A stretch of DNA of 64,000 nucleotides from an uncultured Gemmatimonadales bacterium (GTDB lineage Bacteria; Gemmatimonadota; Gemmatimonadetes; Gemmatimonadales; GWC2-71-9), in the NCBI GenBank assembly GCA_963771275.1, contig CAVYSW010000006.1, positions 96,001 through 160,000 of the forward strand, read 5' to 3'. The notes below the pieces were generated by a model. It searched no databases and was not told the DNA's origin. It saw only the letters and a list, made by a program, of their open reading frames with translations. Position numbers and translations under genes: made by a program. This document shows, piece by piece, positions 8,550 to 30,904 of this stretch (the stretch's first letter is position 1; every line of letters starts with the position of its first letter).

Positions 8550-8629
8550 ACGCTATGGAATGATACACCGGGGGCGCGGGAGCCTTCCATCGGCCCCGCG
8601 CCCCCGGGTCACTCCGTTGGTCGCGCCGC

Positions 8630-9046
8630 CTACTTGGCTTCGGGCGGCGTAAACCCGATGACCTGCACGCCGGCGCCGCGGGCGACGTCCATCGCCTCGA
8701 CGACCTCCTCGAACTTCCGGTTGCGCGCGGTCTTGATGAACATCAGCTTCGTCGGGCGCGGGTCGTAGATCTCCCGCAGCCGGCGCTCGAGGTTCTCCTT
8801 GAGCACCGGGTCGTTGTTGATCGCGTAGCTGCCGTCCTCGTTCAGCTGCAGCACGATCTGGTCCGACGAGGCCTTTTGTGGCGGCAGTTGCTGCTGCAGC
8901 TCCGGCGGCAGCTGCACGTCCATCTTCTTCCGCTGCAGCGGGACCTGCATCATGAAGATGATGAGCAGCACGAGCAGAATATCGATCATCGGGACGACGT
9001 TCGGCTCGTTCCTGAAGCCGCCACTCCCCGCTTCCATGCCCGCCAT
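8630..9046 (-). CDS. exbD: Biopolymer transporter ExbD/TolR
   Basis: PNVVPMIDILLVLLIIFM. Confidence 0.9.
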   Translation of the reverse strand: MAGMEAGSGGFRNEPNVVPMIDILLVLLIIFMMQVPLQRKKMDVQLPPELQQQLPPQKASSDQIVLQLNEDGSYAINNDPVLKENLERRLREIYDPRPTKLMFIKTARNRKFEEVVEAMDVARGAGVQVIGFTPPEAK

Positions 9047-9049
9047 GGC

Positions 9050-9508
9050 TCAGTCCCCTCCCCCGCGTTTGCCGAACGCGCCTTCGCGCTTCTCTTCCGC
9101 GATGGTGGCGAGCACGCGCACGCCTCCCCGCCGGGCGATCTGGAGGGCGTCCTCCACCTTGCCGTAGTCCAGGTTCGCATCCGCCCGGAAGTACATCTTC
9201 TTGTCTTCGCGATTGGTGTAGATCTGCTTCAGGGCCTCTTCGAGCCGCTCCGGGCTCACCGGCGTGACCGTGCCCGACCCGGGGTCCAGGTAGTACGCCC
9301 CGTTCGCGTCGATGCCGAGCACCACATCGCCCTCTTCATCGGAGGCCGTCTCGATGTTCTTGCCCTGCGGGATCTTGGCCGTGAAGCCGGTGGCAATTGC
9401 GGGCGTCACGATCATGAAGATGATCAGCAGCACCAGCATGATGTCGATCATCGGCACCACGTTGGGCTCGGACTTGACCGATCCCTTGGCTCCTACGTCA
9501 GCTCCCAT
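9050..9508 (-). CDS. exbD: Biopolymer transporter ExbD/TolR
   Basis: PNVVPMIDIMLVLLIIFM; RADANLDYG. Confidence 0.9.
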   Translation of the reverse strand: MGADVGAKGSVKSEPNVVPMIDIMLVLLIIFMIVTPAIATGFTAKIPQGKNIETASDEEGDVVLGIDANGAYYLDPGSGTVTPVSPERLEEALKQIYTNREDKKMYFRADANLDYGKVEDALQIARRGGVRVLATIAEEKREGAFGKRGGGD

Positions 9509-9551
9509 GCGTCCATCCTCCCGTTCGCGGGTTCACGCACCGAGTCGGGGA

Positions 9552-10292
9552 TCAGCTGATGTGGCCGGTCTGCGCGGCCGACTGGGCCTTGAATTCCTTC
9601 GTGAAGATCGAGCGGCCGAACTCGCTCCCCGCGTTCTTGATCAGGAAGTCGACCAACTCCTTCGACGTATAGGTCATCTCGACCGTCAGGTTGTCGATCT
9701 TCGTCTGGAAGTAGTTGTAGAACCACACCGCCGGAATGGCGACCATGAGGCCGAAGGCGGTCGTGATCAGCGCCTCGGCGATCCCGGCCGACACGGCGGC
9801 GAGGCCGCCCGAGCCGCTCGTGGCCATGCCGGTGAACGAGTTCACGATGCCCATGGTCGTGCCGAGCAGGCCGACGAACGGAGCCGTCGAGCCCACGGTC
9901 GCGAGAAAGCCCATGCCGCGCTTGAGCTCGGACTGGAGGATCAGCATTTGCCGATCGACCGCCCGCTCCGCGGAGTTGATGTCCTGCGACGTCATCGTGG
10001 CCCGGTCCTTCAGCAGCGGCTTGATCTCGACCAGCGCCTCACCGAGCACCCGCGCGACGTGCGAGACCTTCTGCTTCTCCGCGAGCTGAATGGCCTTCTC
10101 GAGCTGCTCCTCCTGGAGGAACCGCGCGAACTCGGGCGCGAACTTGCGCGTCTGGCGCATGCTCTTGCGGAACCGCCACCACTTGGCACCCGCGACGGTG
10201 AGCGAGATGATGGACATGATCGCGAGGATGAAGATGATGCCGCGCGCGAAGAGGCCTGCGGATGCCCAGAGGTCCAGCAGTGAGAGTTGCAT
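9552..10292 (-). CDS. exbB: MotA/TolQ/ExbB proton channel
   Basis: LATVGSTAPFVGLLGTTMGI; GIAEALITTAFGLMVAIPAV. Confidence 0.93.
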   Translation of the reverse strand: MQLSLLDLWASAGLFARGIIFILAIMSIISLTVAGAKWWRFRKSMRQTRKFAPEFARFLQEEQLEKAIQLAEKQKVSHVARVLGEALVEIKPLLKDRATMTSQDINSAERAVDRQMLILQSELKRGMGFLATVGSTAPFVGLLGTTMGIVNSFTGMATSGSGGLAAVSAGIAEALITTAFGLMVAIPAVWFYNYFQTKIDNLTVEMTYTSKELVDFLIKNAGSEFGRSIFTKEFKAQSAAQTGHIS

Positions 10293-10367
10293 AACAGCGT
10301 CAGTCCTCCCTCAGACGGTACGGGTGCAGCGCGGATCGCCCCCGGGGCGCCGCGCCCTCGAGCTCCT

Positions 10368-11087
10368 CTAGCGGCTCTTGATGATGTTGAACACCACCGG
10401 CACTTCCACGAGCACGCGCACGGCCTGGCCGCGCATGCGTCCCGGCCGGTAGACCGAGCCGAGCACGGCATCGCGCGCCGGCCGCTCGAACGCCTTGTTG
10501 GTGGACCCGACGATCCGGACCGTCTCCGGCTCCGGATGGCCGTCCACGCCAATCACGACCTGGACCCGCACGGTGCCCTCGATTCCCGCGTCCTTGAGGA
10601 GCGGCGGGTAAGCGGGCTGCGGACCGGACAGCCGGATCGGCGCCTCATCGACGACCGCCTCGACGAATACCTGTGCCAGGTCCGTGGGCACCGGGCCGGT
10701 GCCACCTACCACGCCCTGCGCGATGCCGCCTTCGACGCCGACGCCGGAATAGTCGCGCGGGTCGAATCGCTCGTTGAGGTTGACGGGCGGGATTTCGGTC
10801 GGGATCTCGGTGACCACCACGACCGTCTGGAATCCCTGCGGGGGTGGCGTCAGCGAGGCCAGCTGCGGCTTCTCGGGCTCGGGCTCCGGTGGCTTGTCCT
10901 GCTGCTGCGTGAGGAAGACCAGGTTGGTATCGATCTGCGCATCCTGGACGGCCTCCCGGACCTTCATCGTCGCCATCACGGCGCCGTAGATCAGCGCGCC
11001 GTGGATCACCAGCGACATGAACGAGCTCGAGGCCGCGCCACCGATCTTCCGGCCCTTGGGATTGGACTCTACGAGGTTGTCGAACAC
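10368..11087 (-). CDS. tonB: Energy transducer TonB
   Basis: SLVIH anchor, Pro-rich linker, YPPLLKDAGIEGTV..PGRMRGQAVRV. Confidence 0.88.
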   Translation of the reverse strand: MFDNLVESNPKGRKIGGAASSSFMSLVIHGALIYGAVMATMKVREAVQDAQIDTNLVFLTQQQDKPPEPEPEKPQLASLTPPPQGFQTVVVVTEIPTEIPPVNLNERFDPRDYSGVGVEGGIAQGVVGGTGPVPTDLAQVFVEAVVDEAPIRLSGPQPAYPPLLKDAGIEGTVRVQVVIGVDGHPEPETVRIVGSTNKAFERPARDAVLGSVYRPGRMRGQAVRVLVEVPVVFNIIKSR

Positions 11088-11265
11088 GTGTTCCTCCCGG
11101 ACGTGGTCAACTCTACGATGAAAATTACCCCGGCATGCGCTCCACCACCTCGCGCACGCGTGGGCGCGAGATTACAGGACGATAACAATCACATTACGGT
11201 CGAGCCCGCACGACCGCTTCGGCGGTCATCCTGTCGCCCCGACCGGTCCCAGCCGCCGAGCTGCT

Positions 11266-11973
11266 CTACCGCTCGATCGCGAACCGGATGGGCTGGTGGA
11301 TCAGCACGCGCACCGCTTCGCCCCGGATCCGGCCAGGCCGGAACAGGCACCCCATCATGGCCTCCCGAGCCGCCGGCTCGAACGCGCGGTTCGTGGCGTG
11401 CACGACGCGCAGCGTCTCGGGCTCGGGGCGCCCATGGGCGTCGATCACCACCTCGATGACGACCTCGCCGCCGACACCCGCGGCGCGCAGCAGCGGAGGG
11501 TAGCGCGGCGGCCGCGCCGAGAGCAGCACGGGAGGCTCGTCGAGCAGCGCCGGCACGAACACCTGGGCAATGGTCAGGGGCGCCGGGGCCGTGCCATCCG
11601 GGTCGCCGTCGGCGACGCCGCCCTCGCGCCCTCGTCCGAGGTAGTCGTTCGGGTTCCAGCGCGCGAGCGGGTCCACCGGCGGAATACCGTCGGGGATCTG
11701 GATGACCGGGATCACGGTCTGGTAGCCCACGCGTGGCCGCTCGAGCGGCGGGAGCGCGGGGGACGCGGCGCGGCGCGCCGGCTGCACCGGCGGCGGAAAC
11801 ACGACGGGGATCGTATCGACCACGGCGGCGCGAACCATCTCCTGCCCCTGCATCGTTGCGGCGACGGCGCCGCACACGAGCGCGCCGTGGACGGCCAGCG
11901 ACATCATCGAGCTCGGTGCCGCGTGGGCGAGCCGGCTCGTCAGGCGTCCGGATGCAACCAGCGTGGTGAACAT
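11266..11973 (-). CDS. tonB: Energy transducer TonB paralog
   Basis: SLAVH anchor; YPPLLRAAGVGGEV..PGRIRGEAVRV; collinear with 10368-11087. Confidence 0.82.
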   Translation of the reverse strand: MFTTLVASGRLTSRLAHAAPSSMMSLAVHGALVCGAVAATMQGQEMVRAAVVDTIPVVFPPPVQPARRAASPALPPLERPRVGYQTVIPVIQIPDGIPPVDPLARWNPNDYLGRGREGGVADGDPDGTAPAPLTIAQVFVPALLDEPPVLLSARPPRYPPLLRAAGVGGEVVIEVVIDAHGRPEPETLRVVHATNRAFEPAAREAMMGCLFRPGRIRGEAVRVLIHQPIRFAIER

Positions 11974-12072
11974 GTCCACCCCCGGCCAGAGTCCGGATCC
12001 ACGTTAGAACGGTCGGCGCAGGCGCGCTTGTCGCCCCGGTGGCCAGTCAATGACAGGAGGGTGACGGGCGGG

Positions 12073-13545
12073 TTACACGCCGTCGATTTCGGGAGGCGCA
12101 GGGGGCTCGAGCGGCAGCGTCACGACGAACGTGGTCCCGCGGCCCAAGCGACTCTCCACGGTGATCGTGCCCCCGTGCGCCTCCACGATCCACTTGGAGA
12201 TGGCGAGCCCGAGGCCGACCCCGCTGCGCTCGCCGGTGCGACTGCGGGCCGGATCGGCGCGCCAGAACCGGTCGAAGATGTGCGGCAGGTCGCCGGGCCC
12301 GATCCCGATGCCGGTGTCGCGCACCGAGATCGCGACCTCGTGTTCCCGGAACTCGGACTGGATCGCGACCGTTCCGCCTGAGGGCGTGTACTTGATGGCG
12401 TTGGTGAGTAGGTTCATCAGCAGCTGGCGCATGCGGTTGCGATCGGCGCCCAGCATCACGGGGTGACCGGGCGTGTCGACGGTCACGTCCACCGCGGCCT
12501 GCTCGCCAAGCAGGCTCGCGGTCTCCGACACCTCCGCCAGGAGCTCCCGCAGGTCGATGGGTTCGAGGTGGAGCGGGGCCCGGCCTTCGTCGGCGCGGGC
12601 CAGCATCAGCAGCGCATCAACCGTCTCCGCCATCCGGTTCACTTCCGCCAGCGTCTCGTCCAGCACCTCCATCACCTCGGGGGTGACGCGCGGGTGGGTG
12701 ATGGCGCGCTCGATCCCCGAGCGGAGCACGGTGAGCGGCGTCTTGAGCTCGTGGCTCGCGTCCGCCGTGAAGCGCCGCAGCGCCTGAAAGCTCCGCTCGA
12801 GGCGGCCCAGCATCTCGTTCAGCGTGCGGGACAGGCGGGCCAGCTCGTCCCCGGTGTCGGGCGACGCGAGGCGCTTGTGGAGGCTCCGGCCGTCGGAGAT
12901 CGCCTCCACCTCGTCCACGATGCCGTCGACGGGCTTCAGGGTGCGGCCCGCCAGGAGGTAGCCGATCAGCGTCGACGCCAGCAGGATGAGCGGCGCAACG
13001 GCCAGCATGACGTAGACCAGGTGCCGGGGGGCAATCACGATGCCCGCCGTGGACACGGCGGACAGCACGGCCGCGATCTGCTCGCCCGCGCCGGTCACCG
13101 GCCGGGCGTAGTAGCGGACCAGCCCGACAGGCGCCCCGAGATCGGCGGTGCCGACGCCCGCCGCCGAGTCCGCGCGGAAGACGGGATTCAGCAACAGCAG
13201 CAGCTGGGCGTACCGCAGGGCCCGGGCGTCGGCCGACAGATGGAGCACGTCGCCGTCGGGACCCACGAGCACGACGAAGCCCGGGATCCCCTCGAGAAAC
13301 GGGCTCACCTCCGATGCGAGCACGGGACGGCCCGTCCGCCGGTCCGTGACCACCAGCGCGCCGCGGGCCCGGTAGGCCTCGCTCAACGTCGCCGCGATGA
13401 GGTTCGCCTCGAGGCGCGCGCGATCGTCCAGCTCGCCCAGGTTCTCGCGCCGCTGCACGAGGTAGATGACGAGCGCGAAGACGAACATCGTCCCGGCGAG
13501 CGCCACGGCGTAGGAGGCCGCGAGCCGGCCGCGAATCGTGCGCAT
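12073..13545 (-). CDS. HAMP-domain sensor histidine kinase
   Basis: FTADASHELKTPL, NLLTNAIKYT, DTGIG, GLGL. Confidence 0.92.
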   Translation of the reverse strand: MRTIRGRLAASYAVALAGTMFVFALVIYLVQRRENLGELDDRARLEANLIAATLSEAYRARGALVVTDRRTGRPVLASEVSPFLEGIPGFVVLVGPDGDVLHLSADARALRYAQLLLLLNPVFRADSAAGVGTADLGAPVGLVRYYARPVTGAGEQIAAVLSAVSTAGIVIAPRHLVYVMLAVAPLILLASTLIGYLLAGRTLKPVDGIVDEVEAISDGRSLHKRLASPDTGDELARLSRTLNEMLGRLERSFQALRRFTADASHELKTPLTVLRSGIERAITHPRVTPEVMEVLDETLAEVNRMAETVDALLMLARADEGRAPLHLEPIDLRELLAEVSETASLLGEQAAVDVTVDTPGHPVMLGADRNRMRQLLMNLLTNAIKYTPSGGTVAIQSEFREHEVAISVRDTGIGIGPGDLPHIFDRFWRADPARSRTGERSGVGLGLAISKWIVEAHGGTITVESRLGRGTTFVVTLPLEPPAPPEIDGV

Positions 13546-14214
13546 CTAGTCCTTCATCACGTAGCCGACGCCGCGCACCGTATGGATGAGCTTGTGGGAG
13601 AACCCCTGGTCGACCTTCTTGCGCAGCCGGTTGATCACGACGTCGACCACGTTGGTGCCGGGATCGAAGTGGTAGCCCCAGGCGTACTCGGTGATCAGCG
13701 TCCGCGACATCACGCGCCCGCGGTTCCGCGCGAGGTACTCCAGCACCGCGTATTCCTTCGGCGTGACGTCGAGCGGCCGTCCGGCCCGGCGGATCTCCCG
13801 GCTGGCGGTGTCGATCTCGAGGTCGGCGACCTTGAGGGTGGGCGGCGCGATCGCCTTCGGGCGCCGGGCCACGGCCTCGACCCGCGCGAGCAGCTCCTCG
13901 AAGGCGAACGGCTTGGTGACGTAGTCGTCCGCCCCGGTCCGCAGCGCCTGGACCTTCGACTCGACCGCGTCCTGGGCCGTGAGCACGAGCACCGGTGTCG
14001 TGACCCCGCGATCCCGCAGCGTGCGCAGCACCTCGACCCCGGAGAGCGACGGGAGGCGCAGGTCCAGCACGATCAGGTCGAACTCGCCCGCCGTCGCCCG
14101 CTCGAGACCTTCCCGCCCGTCACCCACCAGCTCCACCTGCATGCCCTGCTCCTCCAGGCCCCGCATGACGAACTGTCCAACCGTGCGATCGTCCTCGACC
14201 ACCAGGACCCTCAC
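13546..14214 (-). CDS. OmpR-family response regulator
   Basis: VLVVEDD, DLRLP, GADDYVTKPF, IHTVRGVGY. Confidence 0.94.
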   Translation of the reverse strand: MRVLVVEDDRTVGQFVMRGLEEQGMQVELVGDGREGLERATAGEFDLIVLDLRLPSLSGVEVLRTLRDRGVTTPVLVLTAQDAVESKVQALRTGADDYVTKPFAFEELLARVEAVARRPKAIAPPTLKVADLEIDTASREIRRAGRPLDVTPKEYAVLEYLARNRGRVMSRTLITEYAWGYHFDPGTNVVDVVINRLRKKVDQGFSHKLIHTVRGVGYVMKD

Positions 14215-22038: not shown

Positions 22039-22584
22039 TCAATGGCCACCGAAGAAGAGCGCAACCCCGAGCTGACCCCCGATCGTGAACGTGCCGGGGA
22101 AATGCGAGCTCTCAAACGAATACTGGACGGGGAACTCCGTGCGGAGCGAAACGCGATCGGCGAGCCGCGTCTTGGCGCCGAATGACGCCCCGATGCCGAA
22201 TTGGACGTCGCTGTCACCCACGCCTGACGCCCCGGCGTTTACGAACCTGAGGGCGCCGAACGGAGCGAAGAACATGCCACGCCGTACACCCTCAAAGGAG
22301 ATGGAGACGCCGAGGCCGAGGCCCGCAACGAGGAGATTGGCACCGTCTACGCGAGCAAAGGCAATCGAGACCGATGGCTCGATGGCCAAGCGCTCACGTA
22401 TCGGGATACCCAGGTAGATGCCGCTACCAGCTGTCTGAAAGGAGAAGACGTGCGTTCCGCCGCCCGACGCATACGAGAACATGCCGACCGCCGCGCCAAC
22501 TTCCATCGCTCGACCCTGCGCGTACGCGAACCCAAGCGGAAGCACGAAACCCGTGAATGCGAATACCACGATCATCTTGCGCAT
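22039..22584 (-). CDS. Outer-membrane beta-barrel protein
   Basis: Signal peptide MRKMIVVFAF..AYA; alternating beta-strands; C-terminal aromatic residues (ALFF). Confidence 0.65.
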   Translation of the reverse strand: MRKMIVVFAFTGFVLPLGFAYAQGRAMEVGAAVGMFSYASGGGTHVFSFQTAGSGIYLGIPIRERLAIEPSVSIAFARVDGANLLVAGLGLGVSISFEGVRRGMFFAPFGALRFVNAGASGVGDSDVQFGIGASFGAKTRLADRVSLRTEFPVQYSFESSHFPGTFTIGGQLGVALFFGGH

Positions 22585-22765
22585 GCCCGCCCCCGGTTGG
22601 TTGGAGTGCGACCGTTGTCTGACCGGCGGCGCGCCCCCCTGCCCACCCGGGAACGCGACACGCGGAGGCATGAATTCGGATTCGCGGTCTGAAACCGCCG
22701 TGAAGGGGGGATGAAGCGCGGTTGACGGCGCGCGGGAAGGTCAAGTGGCCGTGGGTATTGGCCTG

Positions 22766-22808
22766 ATGGAGCGGACGGGATTCGAACCCGTGACCCCCTG
22801 CTTGCAAA
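22766..22808 (-). repeat. att site: 43-bp duplicate of the tRNA-Ala 3' half
   Basis: Identical to 30831-30873 (atggagcggacgggattcgaacccgtgaccccctgcttgcaaa). Confidence 0.95.
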
Positions 22809-22919
22809 TTAGAGGCTCCGGGACTCCCAGCGATTCCCCGCCGTTCCCGATTCTCCCGTTTCCCCTCTGAAAACGCGCTCTTGCCGGTTCCTAGACGTTC
22901 CCCTAGATTCCTTCCAAGT

Positions 22920-22953
22920 GGTTACCCGGCGGCTACCCCAGGTCCGGGTAACC
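22920..22953. repeat. Putative integrase arm-type sites, left end
   Basis: GGTTACCC-GGC-GGCTACCC plus inverted GGGTAACC; matches 30763-30781. Confidence 0.7.
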
Positions 22954-22974
22954 CAACCCGTCAGGGGGTGCCGG

Positions 22975-24291
22975 ATGCGCGCCAAGCTCACCAAGAGGAT
23001 CGTGGACAGCCTACGCTGCCCCAGGACGGGCGATCGGTTCGCCTGGGATACCGAGTTGCGGGGGTTCGGCATCCGGGTCAAGCCGAGCGGCGCGAAGAGC
23101 TTCTGTCTCGCCTACTACGCGCCCGGGCTCCACAAGGTGCGTCGCCGGCTCACGCTCGGCGCGTATGGCGTGCTCACCGTAGAGCAGGCCCGCGCCAAGG
23201 CGACCGAGATCCTGGGGCGCGTGCTGAAGGGAGAGGATCCTGCTCGAGAGCGTGTCGAAGCCCGCCGCGCCGCGGAGCAGGAGACGGTCGAGAAGCTGTT
23301 CAACGAGTACCTGGACGACGGCCGCGCCCGGTTCAAGTTGCGAACGGTCGAGGCGTTTGAGAGCGTCGGCCGCTTGTACATCATCCCGAACCTGGGCACG
23401 CTCCCCGTGTCGCGCGTCACCGTGCGCGACGTGGCCCGCTTGCACCACGAGTTGCGCGACAAGCCGGTGCAAGCGAACCGCGTCGTGTCCGTCTTGAAGG
23501 CGTTCTACTACTGGCTCGAACGGCGCGCGCTGTTCACCGGGACGAATCCCGCGCGCCACGTCGAGCCCTATCCAGAGAACCCGCGCGAGCGGTTCCTGTC
23601 CGTCGAGGAGATGGGGAAGATCGGCCAGGCGCTCCGCGTCGCCGAAACGCTCGGCCTGCCCCCGGCACCGGAGCACAAGCGGCCACCTGGCACATCGAAG
23701 CGGGAGCGCAACGCGGGGATGTTTGCCCCGCGGCTCGAAGCCGCGAACCCCGTCACCGTGGCGGCGCTCCGCTTCCTGCTGTTCACCGGCTGGCGCGAGC
23801 AAGAGGCGTTGACGCTCCAGTGGAGCGACGTCAACCTGAAGGCGGGAATCGCCACGCTCGCCGACACGAAATCCGGGAAGAGCGTGCGGGCGCTCGGCGC
23901 TCCGGCGCTCGAGCTGCTGGCGGCGCAACCACGGGTGCAGGGCTCGCCCTATGTGTTCCCGGGCCGCGATCCGTCGAAGCCACTCGAGGGGGTGCGCCGC
24001 CTCTGGCACGCTGTCCGCTGTGAAGCGGGACTCGAAGGCGTCCGGCTCCATGACCTACGGCATTCCGTCGCGTCGTTCGCGGGTGGGCGTGGGTACTCTC
24101 TCTTCCTCATCGGGAAGCTCTTGGGCCACAAGACGGCGCGCTCGACGGAGCGGTACGCGCACCTGGCCGACGATGCGCGCAAGCTGATGGCCGACGACGT
24201 GAGCACTGTGATTAAAGAGGCGTTGGAAGCATCGGACCTGGAGACGGCGCATCTCGCCGCGCCCGTCATGTCGCTCCGCGGACGGCGCTAG
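22975..24291 (+). CDS. Tyrosine recombinase/integrase with N-terminal arm-binding domain
   Basis: KLTKRIVD, WDTELRGFGIRV, LTLGAYG; catalytic TGWR, TKSG, HDLRH, LLGH, TERYAH. Confidence 0.95.
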   Translation: MRAKLTKRIVDSLRCPRTGDRFAWDTELRGFGIRVKPSGAKSFCLAYYAPGLHKVRRRLTLGAYGVLTVEQARAKATEILGRVLKGEDPARERVEARRAAEQETVEKLFNEYLDDGRARFKLRTVEAFESVGRLYIIPNLGTLPVSRVTVRDVARLHHELRDKPVQANRVVSVLKAFYYWLERRALFTGTNPARHVEPYPENPRERFLSVEEMGKIGQALRVAETLGLPPAPEHKRPPGTSKRERNAGMFAPRLEAANPVTVAALRFLLFTGWREQEALTLQWSDVNLKAGIATLADTKSGKSVRALGAPALELLAAQPRVQGSPYVFPGRDPSKPLEGVRRLWHAVRCEAGLEGVRLHDLRHSVASFAGGRGYSLFLIGKLLGHKTARSTERYAHLADDARKLMADDVSTVIKEALEASDLETAHLAAPVMSLRGRR

Positions 24292-24816
24292 GTGCCTGAC
24301 ATCGCGGAGCTCGGCTTGCGCCTCAAAGATGGGAAGGTTGTCGGCACCACTCGCCCGTGGGTCCACACGCTGCACAACATCCAATGCCGCATCGACAAGG
24401 GCGAGACGCCAACGCACGCCGAGATCCTCGCCGCCCTCGCGGCGCATCCCGACGTCGGGCCGGCCATCGCCAATCTGCTCACCAAGGGCAAGAGGAAACG
24501 GGGTCCGCGTGCGAACCCCGACGCCAAGTGGGCGCGCCATCTTTCGCGCGTGTGGGCGGTGAGCCTTCGCGAAGCGGAGTTGCGGCGGCAAGGCGAGCGG
24601 TGTGCGGCCTCGCGTGCCCAGAAAGAGGTGGCGAAGGAACTTGGGATCGCTCTCGCCACACTGAAAGATGCTGTGCGGCGCGCGCCCCTGGGGGCACCGG
24701 CGGGGATCTGCACCATGCACCGCGCGATGCGGGACTACGGCCGAGCTGCTGGCCTTCCTTCGCGCGCACCCCGACGTCGGGCCGGCTCTCACCGACCTGC
24801 CAAGGGGGGTAAGTAA
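24292..24816 (+). CDS. Hypothetical element protein, possible HTH (AQKEVAKELGIALATLK)
   Basis: Starts immediately after the integrase stop; HTH-like segment; contains an out-of-frame internal repeat. Confidence 0.45.
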   Translation: MPDIAELGLRLKDGKVVGTTRPWVHTLHNIQCRIDKGETPTHAEILAALAAHPDVGPAIANLLTKGKRKRGPRANPDAKWARHLSRVWAVSLREAELRRQGERCAASRAQKEVAKELGIALATLKDAVRRAPLGAPAGICTMHRAMRDYGRAAGLPSRAPRRRAGSHRPAKGGK

Positions 24817-24876
24817 AACCGACGAAATAGCTACCCGCATTACGCGATGCCCGCGGCCGTTCCTACCTTGTCCCCC

Positions 24877-25104
24877 ATGACGATCCCCACTGATACGCTA
24901 CTCCTCACCGCGCACCAAGCCAGCGAGCTGCTCGGCCTGGCCGCCTCGACGCTCGCGAAGATGCGCCTCCGCGGTGACGGCCCCAGGTACGTGAAGCTCG
25001 GCGTCTCCGTGCGCTACCCGGTCAGCGCGCTCGAGGCGTACGTCGCCAGCGCGCCACTCCGTCGCTCAACCAGTGAGTACCTCCCCCGGCACCGAGAGGC
25101 ATGA
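24877..25104 (+). CDS. Excisionase/AlpA-like HTH_17 DNA-binding protein
   Basis: LLTAHQASELLGLAASTLAKMRLRGDGPRYVKLGVSVRYPVSALEAY. Confidence 0.88.
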   Translation: MTIPTDTLLLTAHQASELLGLAASTLAKMRLRGDGPRYVKLGVSVRYPVSALEAYVASAPLRRSTSEYLPRHREA

Positions 25105-25334
25105 CCATGACGACACCCTGGCCCCAACAACCACCCCCGGCGCCCTCGGTGCTCGACCGCTCCGTCCAGGCGACCTTCGACGCCAAAATGGCAGAAATCC
25201 AAGAAGCAGAAAACCGGCTACGGCAATCCGATGACTGGTTCGACTTGCCGACGCGGGAGCGGCAGCGGCTCCTCGGCCCGCTCGAGGCGGAACGCGCAGA
25301 GCTGCGGCGCGTCATGAAGGACTTCGGGTTGTGA
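25101..25334 (+). CDS. Hypothetical coiled-coil protein
   Basis: ATGA coupling to xis, GAGG RBS, helical composition. Confidence 0.6.
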   Translation: MTMTTPWPQQPPPAPSVLDRSVQATFDAKMAEIQEAENRLRQSDDWFDLPTRERQRLLGPLEAERAELRRVMKDFGL

Positions 25335-25672
25335 AGGGGCGCGTCGATCGTTTGTGGCGGGACCTGCGCTGCCGGGAAGCCGTGAAGCTGCGTGCCCAGG
25401 GCCGCGCCGTCGCCAGCGGCTTCGACCTGGCGCGTCCTGACAGCATCGCCGCCCTCGCCGCCCTCGATCCGATCGGCCGGCAGGCATGTCTGGCCGCGCT
25501 CAAAGTGGAGCAGCTCGAGCAGCTCGCCGCGGGCGACGACTTCCGCGCCGCGTACGGGGTCGGGCTCGATGACCTGAGTGATGGGGAGCTCAAGCGGCTC
25601 GCCGCCGGCGAAGACCCCCACACCGTGCTCAGGGGCGGTGAGCGTGGACGTGGTGAGCAACAGTCACCGTGA
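25331..25672 (+). CDS. Hypothetical protein
   Basis: GTGA coupling; LDDLSDGELKRLA motif common in small phage proteins. Confidence 0.55.
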   Translation: MKGRVDRLWRDLRCREAVKLRAQGRAVASGFDLARPDSIAALAALDPIGRQACLAALKVEQLEQLAAGDDFRAAYGVGLDDLSDGELKRLAAGEDPHTVLRGGERGRGEQQSP

Positions 25673-26048
25673 CGGTCAGCGTCGATGCGAGGCGCGCACC
25701 GCCACCGGGAAGCCCTGCCGTATGCCTCCACTCGCCGGCCGGTCATTCTGTTTCAACCACGATCCGGAGCGGGCGCGCGATCGTGCGACGGCTCGCCGTC
25801 GTGGGGGGAAGCAGTCGCGCCGCGATGCGCAAAAGGCCTCGACGCCGGCGGCCGTGGGCACCGTCGAGCAGCTGCAGGGGATCCTCGGCAAGGCGATCGC
25901 GGACATTCAGGTGCTCGAGAACAGCTGCAGCCGCGGCCGTACGCTCGCCTCGCTGGTGCACACCGGCCTCGCGGCGCTCGAGGTCGGGGAGCTCGAGCAG
26001 CGGTTGCGCGTGCTCGAGGAGCGGTTCGGCGCGGCGCGGAGCTCGTGA
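25650..26048 (+). CDS. Zn-finger plus coiled-coil protein, small-terminase-like (DUF5763/HGGxSTG-like)
   Basis: CEARTATGKPCRMPPLAGRSFCFNHDP..RRGG and C-terminal EVGELEQRLRVLEE; start uncertain. Confidence 0.6.
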   Translation: MVSNSHRDGQRRCEARTATGKPCRMPPLAGRSFCFNHDPERARDRATARRRGGKQSRRDAQKASTPAAVGTVEQLQGILGKAIADIQVLENSCSRGRTLASLVHTGLAALEVGELEQRLRVLEERFGAARSS

Positions 26049-26690
26049 GATGATCGTGATGTTCGAGGTGAACGTGATGTCCAGGGGTGGCGCGGTGCAC
26101 GCAAGTGCTCGGGTAGAGCAGGCCCGGCGGGGATGATCCCCACCCCGGCCGCGCGTTCCCTCGGGTCGGGCTGATAGAAGAACAACGCGCCCCGGGCGTG
26201 CAACCCGGAGGCGCGGACCTACTAGCGGCGCGAAAGGGGCGCCACTCGATGCAGAATCTAGCGCGACCATATGACACGCGGCAAGCCGGGAACCGAGCCC
26301 GCCGCACGCGGGAAGGCACGCTGTAGGTGTTCGTGCAGCTGTAGGTGTTGATGTAGGTGATGCACGGCAGTTCTGACACCGTTCTGCCGGTCCCGGGAGC
26401 GAGCCCGGGCGAATCCCAACGGGATGAAGGCAAAGGGGACCGAACTAATCCGGGCTCTGTGGAGACAACCCGGGCCGCCCGAATCCCCTCTGCTGGTTTG
26501 AGGCCGCGTTGAAGGGCCTCTAATGGCTCCCCGATGGGGGCCGCGAACCCGACCCGTTCGCGCGATCATCGGCGCCACCTTCAACCTACTCGCTTTGATG
26601 GCCCCTCGCTGTACAGGGGGTAGTCCGAAGGTCCTGGGCGGCGTACTCGGGTCACAAGGATGGACGCACTAGCCGTAACGGGGGGCCGTC

Positions 26691-26960
26691 GTGAGTGAGG
26701 GTGTTAGCCGTAACGCGAGGGTGCTGGTCGTGGCGCAGTGCATCGCGTGTCACGCGCCCCGCTGGCTTGCGCTCGACGGACGGGGGCACACCAAACCCCT
26801 CTTGGTGCATTGCGCCGGGTGTCACCGCGACGTGCCCCTACCATCGGTCCCGCGTCCGGCACGCCGGCGTCGGGCGACACGGCGCGACGTGGTGTTCTGC
26901 TCGTCGGCGTGCCGTCAAGCGCTTTCCGGGAACGTCACCGCGCTTGAGGAGAAGAAATGA
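26691..26960 (+). CDS. Small Cys-rich (Zn-ribbon) phage-type protein
   Basis: CIAC, CAGC and FCSSACRQ motifs; overlaps the next start (ATGA). Confidence 0.45.
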   Translation: MSEGVSRNARVLVVAQCIACHAPRWLALDGRGHTKPLLVHCAGCHRDVPLPSVPRPARRRRATRRDVVFCSSACRQALSGNVTALEEKK

Positions 26961-27517
26961 CGCAGCAAGTCATCAACATCGGCACGATCCCCGGCGACCA
27001 CACGGGCACCAAAGGGCTCCGGACCGCCGGCGACATGATCAACGACAACTTCGGCGAGCTGTACGCGGCGGTTGACGCCCTGAGTGGCTTTGACCTCGAG
27101 GGCCTGTCGGATGCGGTGGACGTGCTCACCGCGACCGTGGCGCCCTTCACGACGGGCGCAGACGTGGCCGTAGATCGTGCGGTGCGCTGCGGCTTGGCAA
27201 CGGTGACCGTGGCGAGCGGCGACGTGGCCAAGAGCATCGCCCTGACCGCCGCGAACGTCACGCGCGTCCTCCTGGGGAACACCAATCCCGTCGAACTGAC
27301 ACTAACCGGCCCGGTCGCCGGCGCGTGCTACAGCTTGGCGCTCTATGCGAGTGGCGGCGCGCGGTCGTTTACCTGGGGCACGTCCGTTACCTGGGTCGGC
27401 GACGAACCGGACGGCACGCTCGCGCCGGGTAACGCGCAGATCGTGACCTTGCTTGCCATGTCGGGCGGTATCCTACTCGGCTGGGCGTCCGCAGAGGGCG
27501 CCTACGGGGCCATCTGA
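26957..27517 (+). CDS. Phage tail/baseplate-associated protein with T4 gp9/gp10-like N-terminus
   Basis: QQVINIGTIPGDHTGTKGLRTAGDMINDNFGELY resembles the T4 gp9/gp10 N-terminal motif; C-terminal RSFTW..VTW.G..P tail-fibre-type module; GAGGAG RBS. Confidence 0.7.
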   Translation: MTQQVINIGTIPGDHTGTKGLRTAGDMINDNFGELYAAVDALSGFDLEGLSDAVDVLTATVAPFTTGADVAVDRAVRCGLATVTVASGDVAKSIALTAANVTRVLLGNTNPVELTLTGPVAGACYSLALYASGGARSFTWGTSVTWVGDEPDGTLAPGNAQIVTLLAMSGGILLGWASAEGAYGAI

Positions 27518-27972
27518 TGCCAGCGTACAACCGGCTGCTCGCGGCGCTCGAGTTGGTCGGTGGCGGCGACCCGTGTTCCGGCGCGCCCTCGATCGTGTCG
27601 GTGACGGCCAGCACGGCGAGCAACCCGTGCGCCTCACATGGCGTCACGCATACCGGCGAAGTGGATCTGTCGGACGTGCTGAGGGGCGGGTTGAAACTGC
27701 AATGGGAAGTCTACACCGACGAGGATAGCGGCTGGCGAACACCGAGCGGTGGCGCCTACACGAGCCCAGGCGGGACCGTGAGCGTCAACACGGACCTCGG
27801 GCTCGGTGGCTATGACACCGCGGGGACGGACGGCGGGCCGCTGTCCATTGGCACCCCGACCGCGAAGTTTCGCTGTCGCATCGTGCGGAGTGATGGGACC
27901 GCGTGCGGCGCGGGGACGTGGACCGAGAGCAGTTACTCAACGGATGGCGCGGACATGTACGAATGCGCGTAG
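27517..27972 (+). CDS. Hypothetical Gly/Thr/Cys-rich beta protein, possibly virion-associated
   Basis: TGATG coupling to the upstream gene; good codon usage. Confidence 0.55.
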   Translation: MPAYNRLLAALELVGGGDPCSGAPSIVSVTASTASNPCASHGVTHTGEVDLSDVLRGGLKLQWEVYTDEDSGWRTPSGGAYTSPGGTVSVNTDLGLGGYDTAGTDGGPLSIGTPTAKFRCRIVRSDGTACGAGTWTESSYSTDGADMYECA

Positions 27973-28240
27973 ACCTCGGACGGCTCGGCCGCCGCACCAG
28001 GATGCCCTAGGAAGGGCCGAGCTAGGCCGTGGTGGGACGTGCTCGACGTGGTGACCACGCAGACCCAGATGGCGACCCCACCCATCTGACACGGCGTTCG
28101 GTAGTCGCACGATGCGACTACCGCCCGCGCCGTGATTGAAGCTTCGGCGCTCGCTGAGCGCGTTGCCGCCCTCGAAGCGGCGACCGCGTGGCCTCGGGCG
28201 CACTAACGGGTGTCACATCGGGAGTGCATATTTCCCCGTG

Positions 28241-28382
28241 GTCCAACCACCGCGTTGAACCGGGCTGGCCCGGCGGCTGGTGGAATGCTCACTCAATGGG
28301 GCAGGTTTCGTTGAGGACGTCACTTGACACACGTTGCTGCTAGCGGAGCCGTGGGCCGGCGCAAACGCGCGGGCCGTTAGAC
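28241..28382 (+). other. Integron attC-like recombination site (solitary)
   Basis: Begins GTCCAAC (RYYYAAC) and ends GTTAGAC (GTTRRRY); inner CGCGTTG../..AACGCG boxes; next ATG 16 bp downstream. Confidence 0.65.
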
Positions 28383-28398
28383 GGTCACCCTCTGTCCG

Positions 28399-29520
28399 AT
28401 GAACGATGCCCTGCTCAGGGTCGCGCTGACGGATTCGCTATCAGACCCCAACTCGCACGCTAATCCACAGTCGCCCATTCGTCATGCGCTAGCAACGGAC
28501 CCCGAGCTAACGCAATTCCAAGACCAGTTTCACTTCCAGGTGTCAGGCTGGGCTCGGGCGACACATCAGACGCTTGCTGGTTGGCTCATTGAGCGAGCGA
28601 GAGCCACCTCAGCTGCCACGGCTGTTTCTGACCTGGCTCGGTACGTCGCCACTGACACAATCACCTGTACACACGTGATGACGCTCGGCGGCGTGCGAGT
28701 TGACCGCGCCGTCCAAGTCGGTCCGGGTATCCAACTCATCTCGTTCGAGGGGATTAGTACGTTCTTCTGGGCAAGTCGCATCGCCGGCTTGTATCGGACC
28801 TTCCATAAGAACTACCAGCCGACCGCCGCAATCCTCCAGACCGCAGCCTACCGGAAAGCGGTCCGCCCACCGGGCGCACAAATGGACTTCCCACCAAACA
28901 TGTACCAATCGCTTGAGGACGTTAGGCGATGCGTCACAGCTATCGGCCCGTCGTGCCCTGTTTGGCTGGGCACTTGGACGGAGCTTGACGAGTGGCTCCC
29001 AACCTATGGGAGCGGCGCGGCGATTCCCAACCCCTTCGAGACGGGTGGCTTCCCACGAAAAACCCGCGAAGGTGACTGGGAGCAACTGCCGTCACTTTAC
29101 TCAGCATGGTGCCGTCTGCCCGTGCGTGAACGAGAACATCTGCGCGTTCCTCTGGACCGCCTAAACCGCGCACAACGGAATCTCCCCATCGTGGACGTCG
29201 CAATCGAGCTTGGGGTGGCGGTGGACGCCTTGTTCCTCGCGGAGCGCGAGGCAGACCGTGGCGAGCAAACCCTCACGCTGCGCTTGCGCGCATCGCGGTT
29301 CCTCGCCCAAGAGGTCCCGGAGCAGCGTATGCTCGCGAAACGCTTCGGCACGCTGTATCGAGCCCGGTCCATGGCGGTGCACGCAGGCCGTCTCGATGAC
29401 GCGATTGACGGCCTAAACACCCGGCAATTGCTCGACCAGGGCTGCGACCTTGCCGCGACCGCACTACGCAGAATCATCCTCGAAGGCCCACCGGATTGGA
29501 CTGAGCTTCTCTACACCTAG
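28399..29520 (+). CDS. HEPN-domain protein, ApeA-like (putative RNase/anti-phage)
   Basis: C-terminal IELGVAVDALFL..TLRLRASRFL..LYRARSMAVHAG containing the RxxxxH motif. Confidence 0.78.
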   Translation: MNDALLRVALTDSLSDPNSHANPQSPIRHALATDPELTQFQDQFHFQVSGWARATHQTLAGWLIERARATSAATAVSDLARYVATDTITCTHVMTLGGVRVDRAVQVGPGIQLISFEGISTFFWASRIAGLYRTFHKNYQPTAAILQTAAYRKAVRPPGAQMDFPPNMYQSLEDVRRCVTAIGPSCPVWLGTWTELDEWLPTYGSGAAIPNPFETGGFPRKTREGDWEQLPSLYSAWCRLPVREREHLRVPLDRLNRAQRNLPIVDVAIELGVAVDALFLAEREADRGEQTLTLRLRASRFLAQEVPEQRMLAKRFGTLYRARSMAVHAGRLDDAIDGLNTRQLLDQGCDLAATALRRIILEGPPDWTELLYT

Positions 29521-29557
29521 GGGACCACACGGGGACGTTGCTGCGGAGCCTCTGACC

Positions 29558-29938
29558 TCAACAACTCCCCGCGGCTAGCAGCACGCTGCGACTGGTTCCC
29601 GCGCCCATGTCAGCGTCCGCAGGGAGACTCATGCAGGTCTGCGGTTCCTCCCGGTGCACACGCACCTCGAGCGGGGGTGGCGCCGCGGTTCGGCGGGCCC
29701 CCGCGCGGGGTTCTGGGATCTCAGACCCCCACTTCAGCTTGGCCGTGATGTACTCGTCGAACACCTCGTCGAGATGTTGCATTGCCTCTACGTCACTGGA
29801 GCCATCTGTCTTGCAGCCGGAAAGTTCCTCGATCCAGGCTAGCCAATACCGGCCACCCGGCTCATCCGGCTGCTCGACAGGCTCACACCGCCGAGTGTAC
29901 GGGAGTGCTTGGTAGTACGGCAAGTTCTTGTCAGTCAT
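29558..29938 (-). CDS. hicB: Type II antitoxin HicB family
   Basis: YWLAWIEELSGCKTDGSSDVEAMQHLDEVFDEYI..EIPEP. Confidence 0.82.
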   Translation of the reverse strand: MTDKNLPYYQALPYTRRCEPVEQPDEPGGRYWLAWIEELSGCKTDGSSDVEAMQHLDEVFDEYITAKLKWGSEIPEPRAGARRTAAPPPLEVRVHREEPQTCMSLPADADMGAGTSRSVLLAAGSC

Positions 29939-29943
29939 GGTCT

Positions 29944-30192
29944 TTATGATTGGCGTCTCGTAAGCTCGTCCACCAGTTTCACGGCATCCTCTGATACCCA
30001 GCTGCGTAGGACATTGTGCCGCGGAACGCCCATGGTCAAGTCCGGATGATCAGGGTGTTCACAGATTGTATGCTTACCTCCCTCCTCAACGCGAAAGCCG
30101 AAGCCCCGGAGCATCGAGCAGACCTCGTCATGGCCCCAGCCGTGCTTAGTCGCCCGCATGCGCACAAGCAGCCTCTCTGCGCTCCGGCTCAT
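29944..30192 (-). CDS. hicA: Type II toxin HicA family
   Basis: 82 aa; LRGFGFRVEEGGKH..VPRH; lies upstream of hicB. Confidence 0.82.
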   Translation of the reverse strand: MSRSAERLLVRMRATKHGWGHDEVCSMLRGFGFRVEEGGKHTICEHPDHPDLTMGVPRHNVLRSWVSEDAVKLVDELTRRQS

Positions 30193-30193
30193 T

Positions 30194-30616
30194 TCAGTGC
30201 GTCAGCCGAGCGTCGCGCGCCTGGACAGCATAGAGAGGGACGCTTCCTACGTGCCTTCCATCGATTTTCACGGCGAAGTCGTAGGCTCCCGCGTGGGGTA
30301 GCGTGATGTTGGGAAGCTCCATGACGAATTCCCAGGCGAGTGGGGCGTCTGGGTACACTCGACCCTCAGGCTTCAGATCAAACGCGATCTTCTGGGACTT
30401 GCCACACACCTGTCCGTCAGCGTCGATCAGTTCAATAACCAAGTGATGTGCACCGGCTTCGAGTCGCGAGCCCTCCACCCGCACGAGAATCGACAGACTC
30501 TTGTGAATGACTGGAAAGGCGGGAGCGGCAATCAAGTCGAAGATCCCGATGACGATCTTCTTGTTGGCCTGCCCTGGGGTGATGTGGTCGGCAATGAAGC
30601 CGTAGCGGAGATACAT
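30194..30616 (-). CDS. DUF6941-like beta-sandwich protein
   Basis: IADH..KIVIGIFDLIAAPAFPVIH..LPHAGAYDFAVKIDG; 1 bp from hicA. Confidence 0.7.
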   Translation of the reverse strand: MYLRYGFIADHITPGQANKKIVIGIFDLIAAPAFPVIHKSLSILVRVEGSRLEAGAHHLVIELIDADGQVCGKSQKIAFDLKPEGRVYPDAPLAWEFVMELPNITLPHAGAYDFAVKIDGRHVGSVPLYAVQARDARLTH

Positions 30617-30762
30617 GTTGGACTCCCGTCACCTGCGTTTCCCGACCGACGCCGTGTAGTCGTTTGTCACAGCCATTGGCACAGCGCATTGGTGTCGCGC
30701 CTCGCCAACGGCTCGGTGCGCCCCGAGCTGGCGATTTCCTGACCCCCGAAACCCTGCCGGTC

Positions 30763-30781
30763 GGTTACCCGGCGGTTACCC
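30763..30781. repeat. Putative integrase arm-type sites, right end
   Basis: GGTTACCCGGCGGTTACCC, 18/19 identical to 22920-22938. Confidence 0.7.
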
Positions 30782-30831
30782 TGGCTCCAGACCTCCGCGC
30801 CTGAAATCGGCTAAGTGCTTGCGGGACAACA

Positions 30832-30904
30832 TGGAGCGGACGGGATTCGAACCCGTGACCCCCTGCTTGCAAAGCAGGTGCTCTCCCAACTGAGCTACCG
30901 CCCC
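30832..30904 (-). tRNA. tRNA-Ala (TGC)
   Basis: GGGGCGGTAGCTCAGTTGGGAGAGCACCTGCTTTGCAAGCAGGGGGTCACGGGTTCGAATCCCGTCCGCTCCA; G3:U70; CCA not encoded. Confidence 0.97.

Follow-up and report, generated by a model that had tools for sequence, protein, structure and literature searches.

Phage-inducible chromosomal islands, or PICIs, have in SatelliteFinder a model of five core functions, namely integrase, regulation, primase-replicase, capsid morphogenesis and small terminase, and according to the excerpted description of these models some accepted PICIs are also without a capsid-morphogenesis gene (PMC10085698). For P4-like satellites the same excerpt gives a core in conserved order that includes psu-delta-sid, alpA, epsilon and the alpha primase (PMC10085698). 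The PICMIs (phage-inducible chromosomal minimalist islands) of the Vibrionaceae integrate beside fis and use three core proteins to excise and replicate, as summarised in the available extract of PMC10803314. Here we describe a small island of an uncultured Gemmatimonadales bacterium and compare it with these systems. It lies in a window of 64,000 nucleotides, i.e. the whole stretch that was analysed (assembly GCA_963771275.1, contig CAVYSW010000006.1, positions 96,001 to 160,000), and all coordinates below refer to the first letter of this window. With moderate confidence we regard the island as a reduced, non-autonomous derivative of a phage or a PICI-type element, which is integrated in the chromosome and carries defence or addiction cargo of lower GC content.

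The window contains two tRNA genes, one of which is a tRNA-Ala(TGC) at 30832-30904 on the minus strand (ARAGORN; Rfam tRNA 73.4 bits). Two exact 43-bp direct repeats at 22766-22808 and 30831-30873, the copies of which diverge outside, have the sequence of the last 43 nt of this gene, i.e. its 3' end. An earlier note on this DNA had delimited the element at the same positions and proposed att repeats at its ends. Since the repeats are exact and the right copy is the 3' part of tRNA-Ala(TGC), these boundaries are the two att copies and enclose an insertion of 8,065 bp downstream of the tRNA 3' end. The left copy, attL (22766-22808, no strand), is the displaced one; attR (30831-30873) belongs to the intact tRNA gene, with which it forms a feature at 30831-30904 on the minus strand. 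An Rfam scan from 21.5 to 31.5 kb yielded nothing beyond this tRNA and a sub-threshold tmRNA match at attL (24.5 bits vs 47), which was rejected as an artefact of the tRNA-like piece.

In two genomes of the same genus, the left flank known from the window adjoins the tRNA gene directly, without the island. In one (G004) a sodC homologue is followed after 25 bp by tRNA-Ala, and in the other (G001) crp is followed by tRNA-Ala after about 147 bp. The empty-site reading refers to these two of six congeners. The tRNA-Ala site is used repeatedly, because second partial copies of its 3' end (43-44 nt, 91-93% identical) are present in two genomes of the same family (locus pair L013/L014). In G016 the partial copy (C29:46488-46531) and the intact gene (50303-50377) are 3.8 kb apart, and in G024 (C78:852-894 and 2727-2799) the distance is 1.9 kb. 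No relative of the window integrase was found between the tRNA copies of either genome, and both stretches look like small remnants at the same integration site. On the left flank of our island a 210-aa gene (22039-22671, minus strand) is located between sodC and attL, outside the repeats. It is absent at the empty sites of both congeners and may be the leftover of an earlier insertion or a lineage-specific gene.

From attL to attR the gene order is integrase (int), excisionase (xis), early genes, a gene at the position of the small terminase subunit (TerS), a baseplate-type gene, accessory genes and att, with the block from the large terminase subunit (TerL) to the tail missing before the baseplate-type gene. 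This is the usual map of a temperate phage minus the TerL-to-tail and replication genes, which fits a phage or a PICI-type derivative reduced by internal loss. All 13 open reading frames (ORFs) of the island are coding-like by their GC content at third codon positions (GC3 0.67-0.87). None of them matched a primase, helicase, replication initiator, replicase, capsid, portal, TerL or lysis protein in Pfam, PHROGs or NCBIfam, so that the absence of primase, replicase and capsid genes noted before is confirmed in these collections. The island cannot replicate or build particles alone; helper-dependent transfer as in PICIs is possible. Phage ancestry is indicated by the N-terminus of the protein p186, by its viral nearest neighbours and by kin of the protein p156, which immediately precede TerL at 7 of the 12 loci known from the phylum sample. 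An out-of-frame duplicate after the gene p174 and a non-coding gap of 642 bp point to decay or rearrangement of the island. In composition it consists of two modules. The left part (22.9-28.0 kb) has a host-like GC content of 0.66-0.72 with GC3 of 0.76-0.87, and the right part (28.3-30.7 kb) is lower, with 0.59-0.65 and 0.67-0.72, respectively.

From these features the following course may be proposed. A tyrosine integrase inserted the 8.07-kb island into the 3' end of tRNA-Ala(TGC), and the island-borne copy of the last 43 nt restores the tRNA. The first of three parts is a recombination module of int, a small protein with a helix-turn-helix (HTH) and an HTH_17-type xis. The second part, of host-like GC content, may represent phage leftovers, i.e. 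a putative Zn-ribbon DNA-binding protein with kin at the small-terminase position, followed by the genes zf89, p186 and p151. The third part, beside attR, would be the lower-GC cargo, consisting of a HEPN protein, likely a stress- or phage-triggered RNase, and of DUF6941-HicA-HicB. This block probably provides abortive-infection or addiction functions and might thereby aid persistence of the island; it could have been picked up or retained during reduction. The earlier view of a small, non-autonomous, phage-related integrative element with defence-type cargo is supported, and the word degenerate, which was offered as one option, is apt. On this reading the island is one more tRNA-borne, phage-derived island with defence or addiction cargo from a phylum whose mobile elements are little studied, and the use of its description would lie mainly in annotation.

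The island resembles PICIs and Staphylococcus aureus pathogenicity islands (SaPIs), as far as the excerpt of PMC10085698 describes them, in its small size, the integrase at one end, an AlpA/MerR-type HTH protein, a gene whose family occurs at the TerS position, and accessory genes of defence type near att. Unlike the PICIs of that excerpt, it has no primase-replicase and no capsid-morphogenesis gene, carries a tail-type gene, yielded no conserved relatives in the searches and resides in a Gemmatimonadota host, and the TerS role of its candidate is putative (PMC10085698). Regarding single components of the PICI model, the integrase is present (Phage_integrase 2.5e-18, phrog_1 1.3e-53), as had been stated before, and the regulator, for which the model accepts homologues of alpA, merR or stl, is represented by an HTH_17 protein (6.5e-8). 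A tail or holin component is forbidden in the model; p186 matches the tail family phrog_677 (8.2e-6), over 39 residues only. Capsid-forming PICIs differ from the island, among the ORFs of which there is no TerL, portal, capsid, head-tail adaptor or connector, nor was a TerL remnant found. The island also differs from P4-like satellites, since it has int and the AlpA-like HTH only, and no match of alpha primase, psu, sid or delta type was obtained in the three profile collections. The integrase is the seventh component of the P4-like core.

With PICMIs, as portrayed in the extract of PMC10803314, the island shares the very small number of genes, the lack of capsid-remodelling genes and the presence of defence cargo, but its site is tRNA-Ala and no replication protein is recognisable (PMC10803314). 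There is also a likeness to CP4-57-type tRNA remnants, in which an arm-binding P4-type integrase also stands beside an AlpA-like gene and att is a tRNA 3' end. Cryptic prophages are similar in their prophage-like order with most structural genes missing and in the toxin-antitoxin or abortive-infection cargo near attR. In contrast to defective prophages, the att repeats, int and xis of the island are all intact, and the missing structural genes have left no pseudogene fragments that could be detected. Hence the reduction, if there was one, was clean.

The integrase gene (22918-24291, plus strand, GC3 0.87) encodes a tyrosine recombinase of the P4/CP4-57 type with an arm-binding, a SAM-like and a catalytic domain. 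In addition to the two profiles given above it matches Arm-DNA-bind_3 (4.7e-16) and Phage_int_SAM_3 (2.3e-6). It is the sole full-length copy in the genome, where a second match is weak and covers 59 residues (E 8.4e-4). The 85-aa product of 24847-25104 (plus strand) had been named Xis, and this is backed by HTH_17 with 33.2 bits at a Pfam cut-off of 27, by phrog_66 (excisionase and transcriptional regulator, 2e-5) and by homologues of 45-62% identity in five islands with related integrases. Its HTH_17 domain is of the MerR-like excisionase type and not of the Phage_AlpA family itself. Between both genes lies p174 (24292-24816, plus strand), which encodes a small HTH-like protein of no family with weak HTH matches (HTH_10 0.052) and no match in IMG/VR. 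The last 50 codons of p174 are not coding-like (GC2 0.72 > GC3 0.68), and between p174 and xis its N-terminal part recurs as a truncated duplicate in another frame (about 24668-24800). The duplication is visible as a 61-nt repeat (24418-24478 and 24740-24800, 75% identity), which encodes AE(I/L)LA.L.AHPDVGPA in two different frames. Altogether, the recombination module of int, small HTH protein and HTH_17 xis looks intact, and int and xis are presumably still functional.

Integrases related to that of the window (E<=1e-30) are found in 24 of 301 genomes of the order, the window genome included. When 17 window proteins, four of them from the host flank, were compared with 14 integrase loci and seven same-site loci, only int (14 loci), xis (five loci) and sodC gave matches, the latter being the flank gene at one empty-site locus. 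Three islands that were examined (L049, L050 and L060) have related integrases of about 41-64% identity and a xis gene 10-13 kb from int on the opposite strand. Prim-Pol is encoded in L049 and L060, DUF3631 in L060, and restriction-modification in L050 and L060. They are P4-like defence islands in the sister family. All three also have a divergent HTH_3 repressor; the restriction-modification system of L050 is of type I, and in L060 there is an MmeI-type enzyme, accompanied by a DEAD helicase and a T5orf172 protein. In a DNA search of 40 relatives, the island was unmatched save for the tRNA and for weak stretches of 67-72% identity in the right-flank gene and in part of the integrase.

The gene p156 (25578-26048, plus strand) encodes a Zn-ribbon and coiled-coil protein whose homology begins at about 25665. 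It had been introduced as a TerS-like Zn-finger. The Zn-ribbon family is large, as an exhaustive HMMER search found 1651 representative clusters (E<=1e-3) of about 120-140 aa, starting near residue 35 of the ORF, with a C-x9-C-x10-C-x2-H ribbon, a basic RGG stretch and C-terminal helices in common and with (nearly) invariant Cys/His ligands. p156 itself matches phrog_3678 (1.7e-5), and its AlphaFold2 (AF2) model has a predicted local distance difference test score (pLDDT) of 90.5. The link to TerS, in contrast, is provided only by more distant members, whose position is immediately before TerL. Of 401 sampled genomes of the phylum, 12 have the family, at 13 places. Among the 12 phylum loci other than the window, a TerL homologue (phrog_2, 1e-11 to 1e-42) adjoins the p156-family gene in seven; in six of these the two genes overlap or are at most about 20 nt apart, and one TerL is truncated. 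Four of the 12 loci (L076, L077, L080 and L081) have no TerL within about 10 kb, and one further contig is too short.

The closer relatives of p156 are encoded in Chloroflexota genomes and in metagenomes (5 and 16 loci). TerL was found in none of the ten of these loci with at least 2 kb downstream, none of 54 ORFs taken from 9 of the 21 close-relative loci matched a terminase in PHROGs, and Pfam gave no informative family for the genes downstream of p156-like genes at loci without TerL. The usual context is a primase, a ParB-methyltransferase, the p156-like gene and an unknown protein of about 240 aa, in some cases with xis and int nearby. In Chloroflexota metagenome-assembled genomes and metagenome contigs (L090, L091, L093 and L103), a ParB-domain DNA methyltransferase (phrog_498) is followed first by small ORFs and then by the p156-like Zn-ribbon protein, as a recurring module. 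A primase leads this module in L090 and L103, the protein of about 240 aa, with a very high GC3, follows the p156-like gene in L090, L100 and L103, and in L100 a recombination directionality factor adjoins a module of this type.

In a tree of 30 rows, from which seven partial or duplicate rows had been dropped, the window p156 falls into a clade of 21 rows (support 91/91) without TerL found nearby, several of these rows being on contigs too short to judge, and the TerL-linked copies form two other clades. No terminase profile of the three collections matches p156, and there is no match to it in 50,697 phage records or in IMG/VR. A fold search in BFVD gave 3.2e-3 as best value with uncharacterised Microbacterium-phage proteins as top named matches, and a PDB-wide fold search returned generic helical hairpins only; neither speaks for or against TerS. 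Because of the clade without TerL, the missing phage match and the uninformative folds, a TerS role of p156 is a lead from position and not a result. The family, with more than 1,600 representative clusters, marks TerS-TerL pairs as well as small primase-bearing integrative elements and is thereby a possible marker for small elements that depend on phages in little-studied phyla. It could offer a handle for satellites outside Proteobacteria and Firmicutes.

Downstream of p156 a non-coding gap of 642 bp (26049-26690, no strand) occupies the position of TerL in the TerL-linked relatives and contains no coding-like ORF. In a tblastn search with seven TerL queries no TerL remnant was found in the island, the best hit in the window (E 0.021) being outside it. 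Folded as RNA, the gap is unstructured (z-score -0.10), and it has no Rfam match. Within it, at 26320-26355, there is a short tandem GCTGTAGGTGTT repeat of two copies and a third degenerate one. The GCTGTAGGTGTT repeat might represent an operator, an iteron or a packaging-site remnant.

After the gap, an overlapping run of three genes begins with zf89 (26691-26960, plus strand, GC3 0.76), which encodes a small Cys-rich protein (zf-FCS 0.0038, below cut-off) and whose end overlaps the start of p186 (26957-27517, plus strand). p186 is a short phage-type protein with an N-terminal motif of the gp9/gp10 type. Its description as gp9/gp10-like holds for residues 1-39, to which all profile matches are confined (phrog_677 as above; Pfam T4_gp9_10_N 14.9 bits, below the cut-off of 25), but not for the remainder. 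Thus p186 is like T4 gp9/gp10 in residues 1-39 and differs in having no middle and C-terminal domains. A tblastn search of the 50,697 phage records gave 130 matching records, all of T4-like cyanophages with genomes of about 170-180 kb and with less than 60% identity; where the match falls, the annotation is in most cases gp9 baseplate wedge tail-fibre connector. Among the 30 matches listed, coverage is at most 61%, 26 are N-terminal with 51-56% identity, and four reach residue 114 with 29-32% identity. No record covers at least 80% of p186, so its middle and C-terminal parts lack a counterpart in gp9/gp10 and the C-terminal part is orphan. In the ESM-Atlas, the clusters nearest to p186 are 100% viral and similar to it in length (168-189 aa), which argues for a phage-type short protein rather than a cut-down fibre. 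The proposal that the element uses tail-type genes therefore shrinks to a 39-residue gp9-type N-terminal motif that is common to tail proteins. Close relatives of p186, p156, p151 and p174 were sought in IMG/VR with no or spurious results; one match there (L020) falls in no ORF and was discarded.

The last gene of the run, p151 (27517-27972, plus strand, GC3 0.82), is an orphan ORF for which only its own cluster was found. Among 5.8 billion proteins neither p186 nor p151 has relatives beyond its own records. A RecT-like viral protein (L110) was picked up via an 8-residue pattern as a match of p151 and was dismissed as spurious. In a second public assembly p151 (P0166) is present as a variant with a 1-nt frameshift after residue 110. 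The contig concerned has 7,863 bp, which is close to the 8,065 bp of the island.

The lower-GC module begins with p373 (28399-29520, plus strand), a two-domain protein with a C-terminal HEPN-like domain. As in HEPN proteins of the ApeA/Abi type, this domain with its Rx4H motif follows an N-terminal domain. Fourteen homologues of 30-80% identity were found, and R323-x4-H328 is invariant in 15 of 15 aligned sequences. In the AF2 model (pLDDT 90.7), residues 240-365 were compared with 48,161 PDB representatives using VIA-align. AbiA was the best match (Z 6.5), followed by the HEPN toxins 7ae2 (6.2) and 8xdj (5.8), the HEPN-domain proteins 2hsb (6.2) and 4nqf (4.9), and Csm6 and Cas13bt3 (5.1 each); by the scale of the tool itself, Z values of 4.5-6.5 are middling. 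Foldseek found nothing in the PDB at E<=1e-3. The nearest named ESM-Atlas clusters are HEPN_Apea (0.86-0.89), which is a lead only, and three relatives of p373 are on predicted viral contigs. Unlike members of known HEPN families, p373 and its 14 relatives are matched neither by a Pfam HEPN family nor by a PADLOC model (0 of 15 in either case). Hence the designation as a HEPN gene is supported by the Rx4H motif and a middling fold match but not by Pfam or PADLOC. Judged from motif and model, p373 is probably of the HEPN type, from an undescribed family, and probably an effector of defence or abortive infection. The family would be a HEPN-type candidate defence protein outside the current Pfam and PADLOC models.

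On the opposite strand, DUF6941 (30194-30616, minus strand; PF22091 5.2e-26, 91.9 bits) is the first gene of an operon DUF6941-hicA-hicB and is located 1 bp from hicA. The candidate for a HicA-like toxin (29944-30192, minus strand, 82 aa) scores 21.4 bits with HicA_toxin (2.8e-4, cut-off 27) and is also matched by phrog_353 (toxin, 1.7e-4) and by the PADLOC HicA-like model (0.035). The candidate for the HicB-like antitoxin (29558-29938, minus strand, 126 aa) scores 20.1 bits with a UPF0150-like profile (6.1e-4, cut-off 27.3) and lies downstream of the hicA-like gene at a distance of 5 bp and on the same strand, i.e. in toxin-then-antitoxin order. The name hicAB given to this pair thus agrees with size, order and spacing, whereas all profile scores are below the curated cut-offs. 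The order and the sizes of 82 and 126 aa are as in HicAB; the sub-threshold scores and DUF6941 as first operon gene are not those of a canonical hicAB. None of the three proteins has a meaningful sequence match in the PDB. Presumably, the cargo acts in defence or addiction.

Several observations weigh against the favoured reading. We found no full-size parent prophage that has the same genes, and consequently reduction is deduced from gene order alone. With an element that is small by design, the exact att repeats and the intact int, xis and p156 would agree as well. The closest kin of p156 occur either in small integrative elements that bear a primase or rep, or on contigs with no TerL nearby (0 of the 10 loci that have 2 kb or more downstream), and such contexts could be what a satellite lineage looks like. 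For six of the 13 ORFs (p174, p77, p113, zf89, p151 and most of p186) no function can be assigned, so that a replication or hijacking function could hide in the island. The defence role of p373 and hicAB, finally, is based on sub-threshold or structural similarity only. According to the earlier note, the idea of a satellite would fail if relatives revealed a deletion remnant of an ordinary large prophage with no conserved small-element gene order. No gene order is conserved across the loci compared, as for a remnant, but a full-size parent prophage was not found either.

Among the alternatives, a working helper-dependent minimal satellite of the PICI type fares best, although we consider it unlikely. 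Int and Xis would excise the island after helper infection, p156 would be a small terminase that steers the TerL of the helper to the island DNA, and the helper would provide replication, capsid and tail; the island would then be one of an undescribed group of Zn-ribbon-TerS islands that occur in Gemmatimonadota and Chloroflexota. Integrase, AlpA/MerR-type regulator and a member of the TerS-position family make up at most three of the five PICI core functions in the excerpted models (PMC10085698), the att repeats are exact, the genes are intact, and the window p156 clusters with copies without TerL found nearby. Three small islands in which int, HTH_17 and a gene of the p156 family occur without TerL (L080, L081 and L077, with a replication initiator in L080 and L077) also fit, as does the existence of minimal satellites such as PICMIs in the extract of PMC10803314. 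On the other hand, there is no primase or replicase and no capsid-morphogenesis gene, and the excerpt of PMC10085698 assigns elements with three core genes to Type C, which are possibly defective elements or chance aggregates. A tail-type gene is forbidden in the same PICI model (PMC10085698). For the subfamily of p156 the TerS role is putative; p156 is without match in the 50,697 phage records, and the fold searches are uninformative on TerS. Since phrog_2 has no match anywhere in the genome, which is 96.7% complete, there is no resident helper of this TerL type. Besides int, xis and p156, no island gene recurs in other p156-bearing or integrase-related loci; relatives of p373 exist, but elsewhere. 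A satellite family as suggested by the earlier note is not borne out either, because p186 and p151 are without relatives in the protein collection and the islands with related integrases (42-72% identical) differ in layout and genes.

A bolder version, to which we give little credence, would be an active, extremely reduced satellite of a Gemmatimonadota phage, from an undescribed class of small integrative elements of Gemmatimonadota and Chloroflexota with a Zn-ribbon TerS-like protein and no TerL. The island would, in addition, have given up its own replicase, and its baseplate-connector-type protein would adapt or poison the tail of the helper. If such an island were packaged by a helper, the minimal satellite gene set would be pushed below that of PICMIs.

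The islands L080, L081 and L077 from other Gemmatimonadota are candidate PICI-like satellites in their own right. L080 (2847-15842, 12.95 kb) is bounded by a perfect 45-bp repeat at tRNA-Lys, and L081 (3039-12507, 9.4 kb) by a 44-bp repeat at the 5' half of tRNA-Ser; for L077 (about 6500-13650) no repeat was found. The replication initiators of L080 and L077 adjoin short direct repeats. Elsewhere in the phylum (L079 and L082), decayed TerS-TerL remnants stand beside integrases and tRNAs. In L085 (3455-14173) an arm-binding type integrase, AlpA, an AAA_25 helicase/primase, a p156-like protein and TerL are followed by proteins of 230, 142 and 1196 aa, for which there was no Pfam match at E<=0.01 and no PHROG match at E<=0.001. 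L085 may be either a capsid-forming island or a compact prophage whose head genes are not recognised.

It is very improbable, though conceivable by analogy with tail-assembly inhibition (Tai) systems, that zf89-p186-p151 is itself defence cargo. A free gp9-type N-terminal domain would enter the baseplates of myophages and block the assembly of tail or fibres. [quoted passage not shown] In accordance with such a role, p186 has only the baseplate-anchoring N-terminal motif of gp9-type connectors and stands alone as a short protein, as do many viral proteins of 168-189 aa. The idea is purely inferential, though; look-alike clusters that are 100% viral equally fit a normal virion or accessory role, and from the present data no T4-like phage of the host is known.

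That the right-hand cargo was captured as an integron-type cassette is hardly credible, because the attC-like core pair at 28241-28382 (no strand), which does sit in the spacer (27973-28398) between the high-GC and the lower-GC module exactly where the GC content falls from 0.68 to 0.59-0.65, is a chance-level motif pair. It is the one RYYYAAC...GTTRRRY pair of the window, with no second core pair, and counts as 2 over both strands, whereas 200 shuffles gave a mean of 3.3 (standard deviation 2.6). As single-stranded DNA, the 142-nt stretch folds into separate local hairpins and not into a single long attC-type stem, its ends not being complementary past the 7-nt cores. Nor is there an integron integrase, as the window integrase scores 21 bits against a cut-off of 265 (TIGR02249) and has the Arm-DNA-bind_3 N-terminal domain typical of P4-type integrases. 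The attC-like site and the uptake of cargo through it, both put forward before, are therefore to be abandoned.

The early genes of the island include two small orphan ORFs, p77 (25101-25334, plus strand, GC3 0.78) and p113 (25331-25672, plus strand, GC3 0.81); like zf89 and p151, they match no family at or above the curated cut-offs. A scan for promoters and terminators gave no more signals than in shuffles. In a word search of sequencing runs, small shares only (0.07-0.13) were found, in four runs of three studies.

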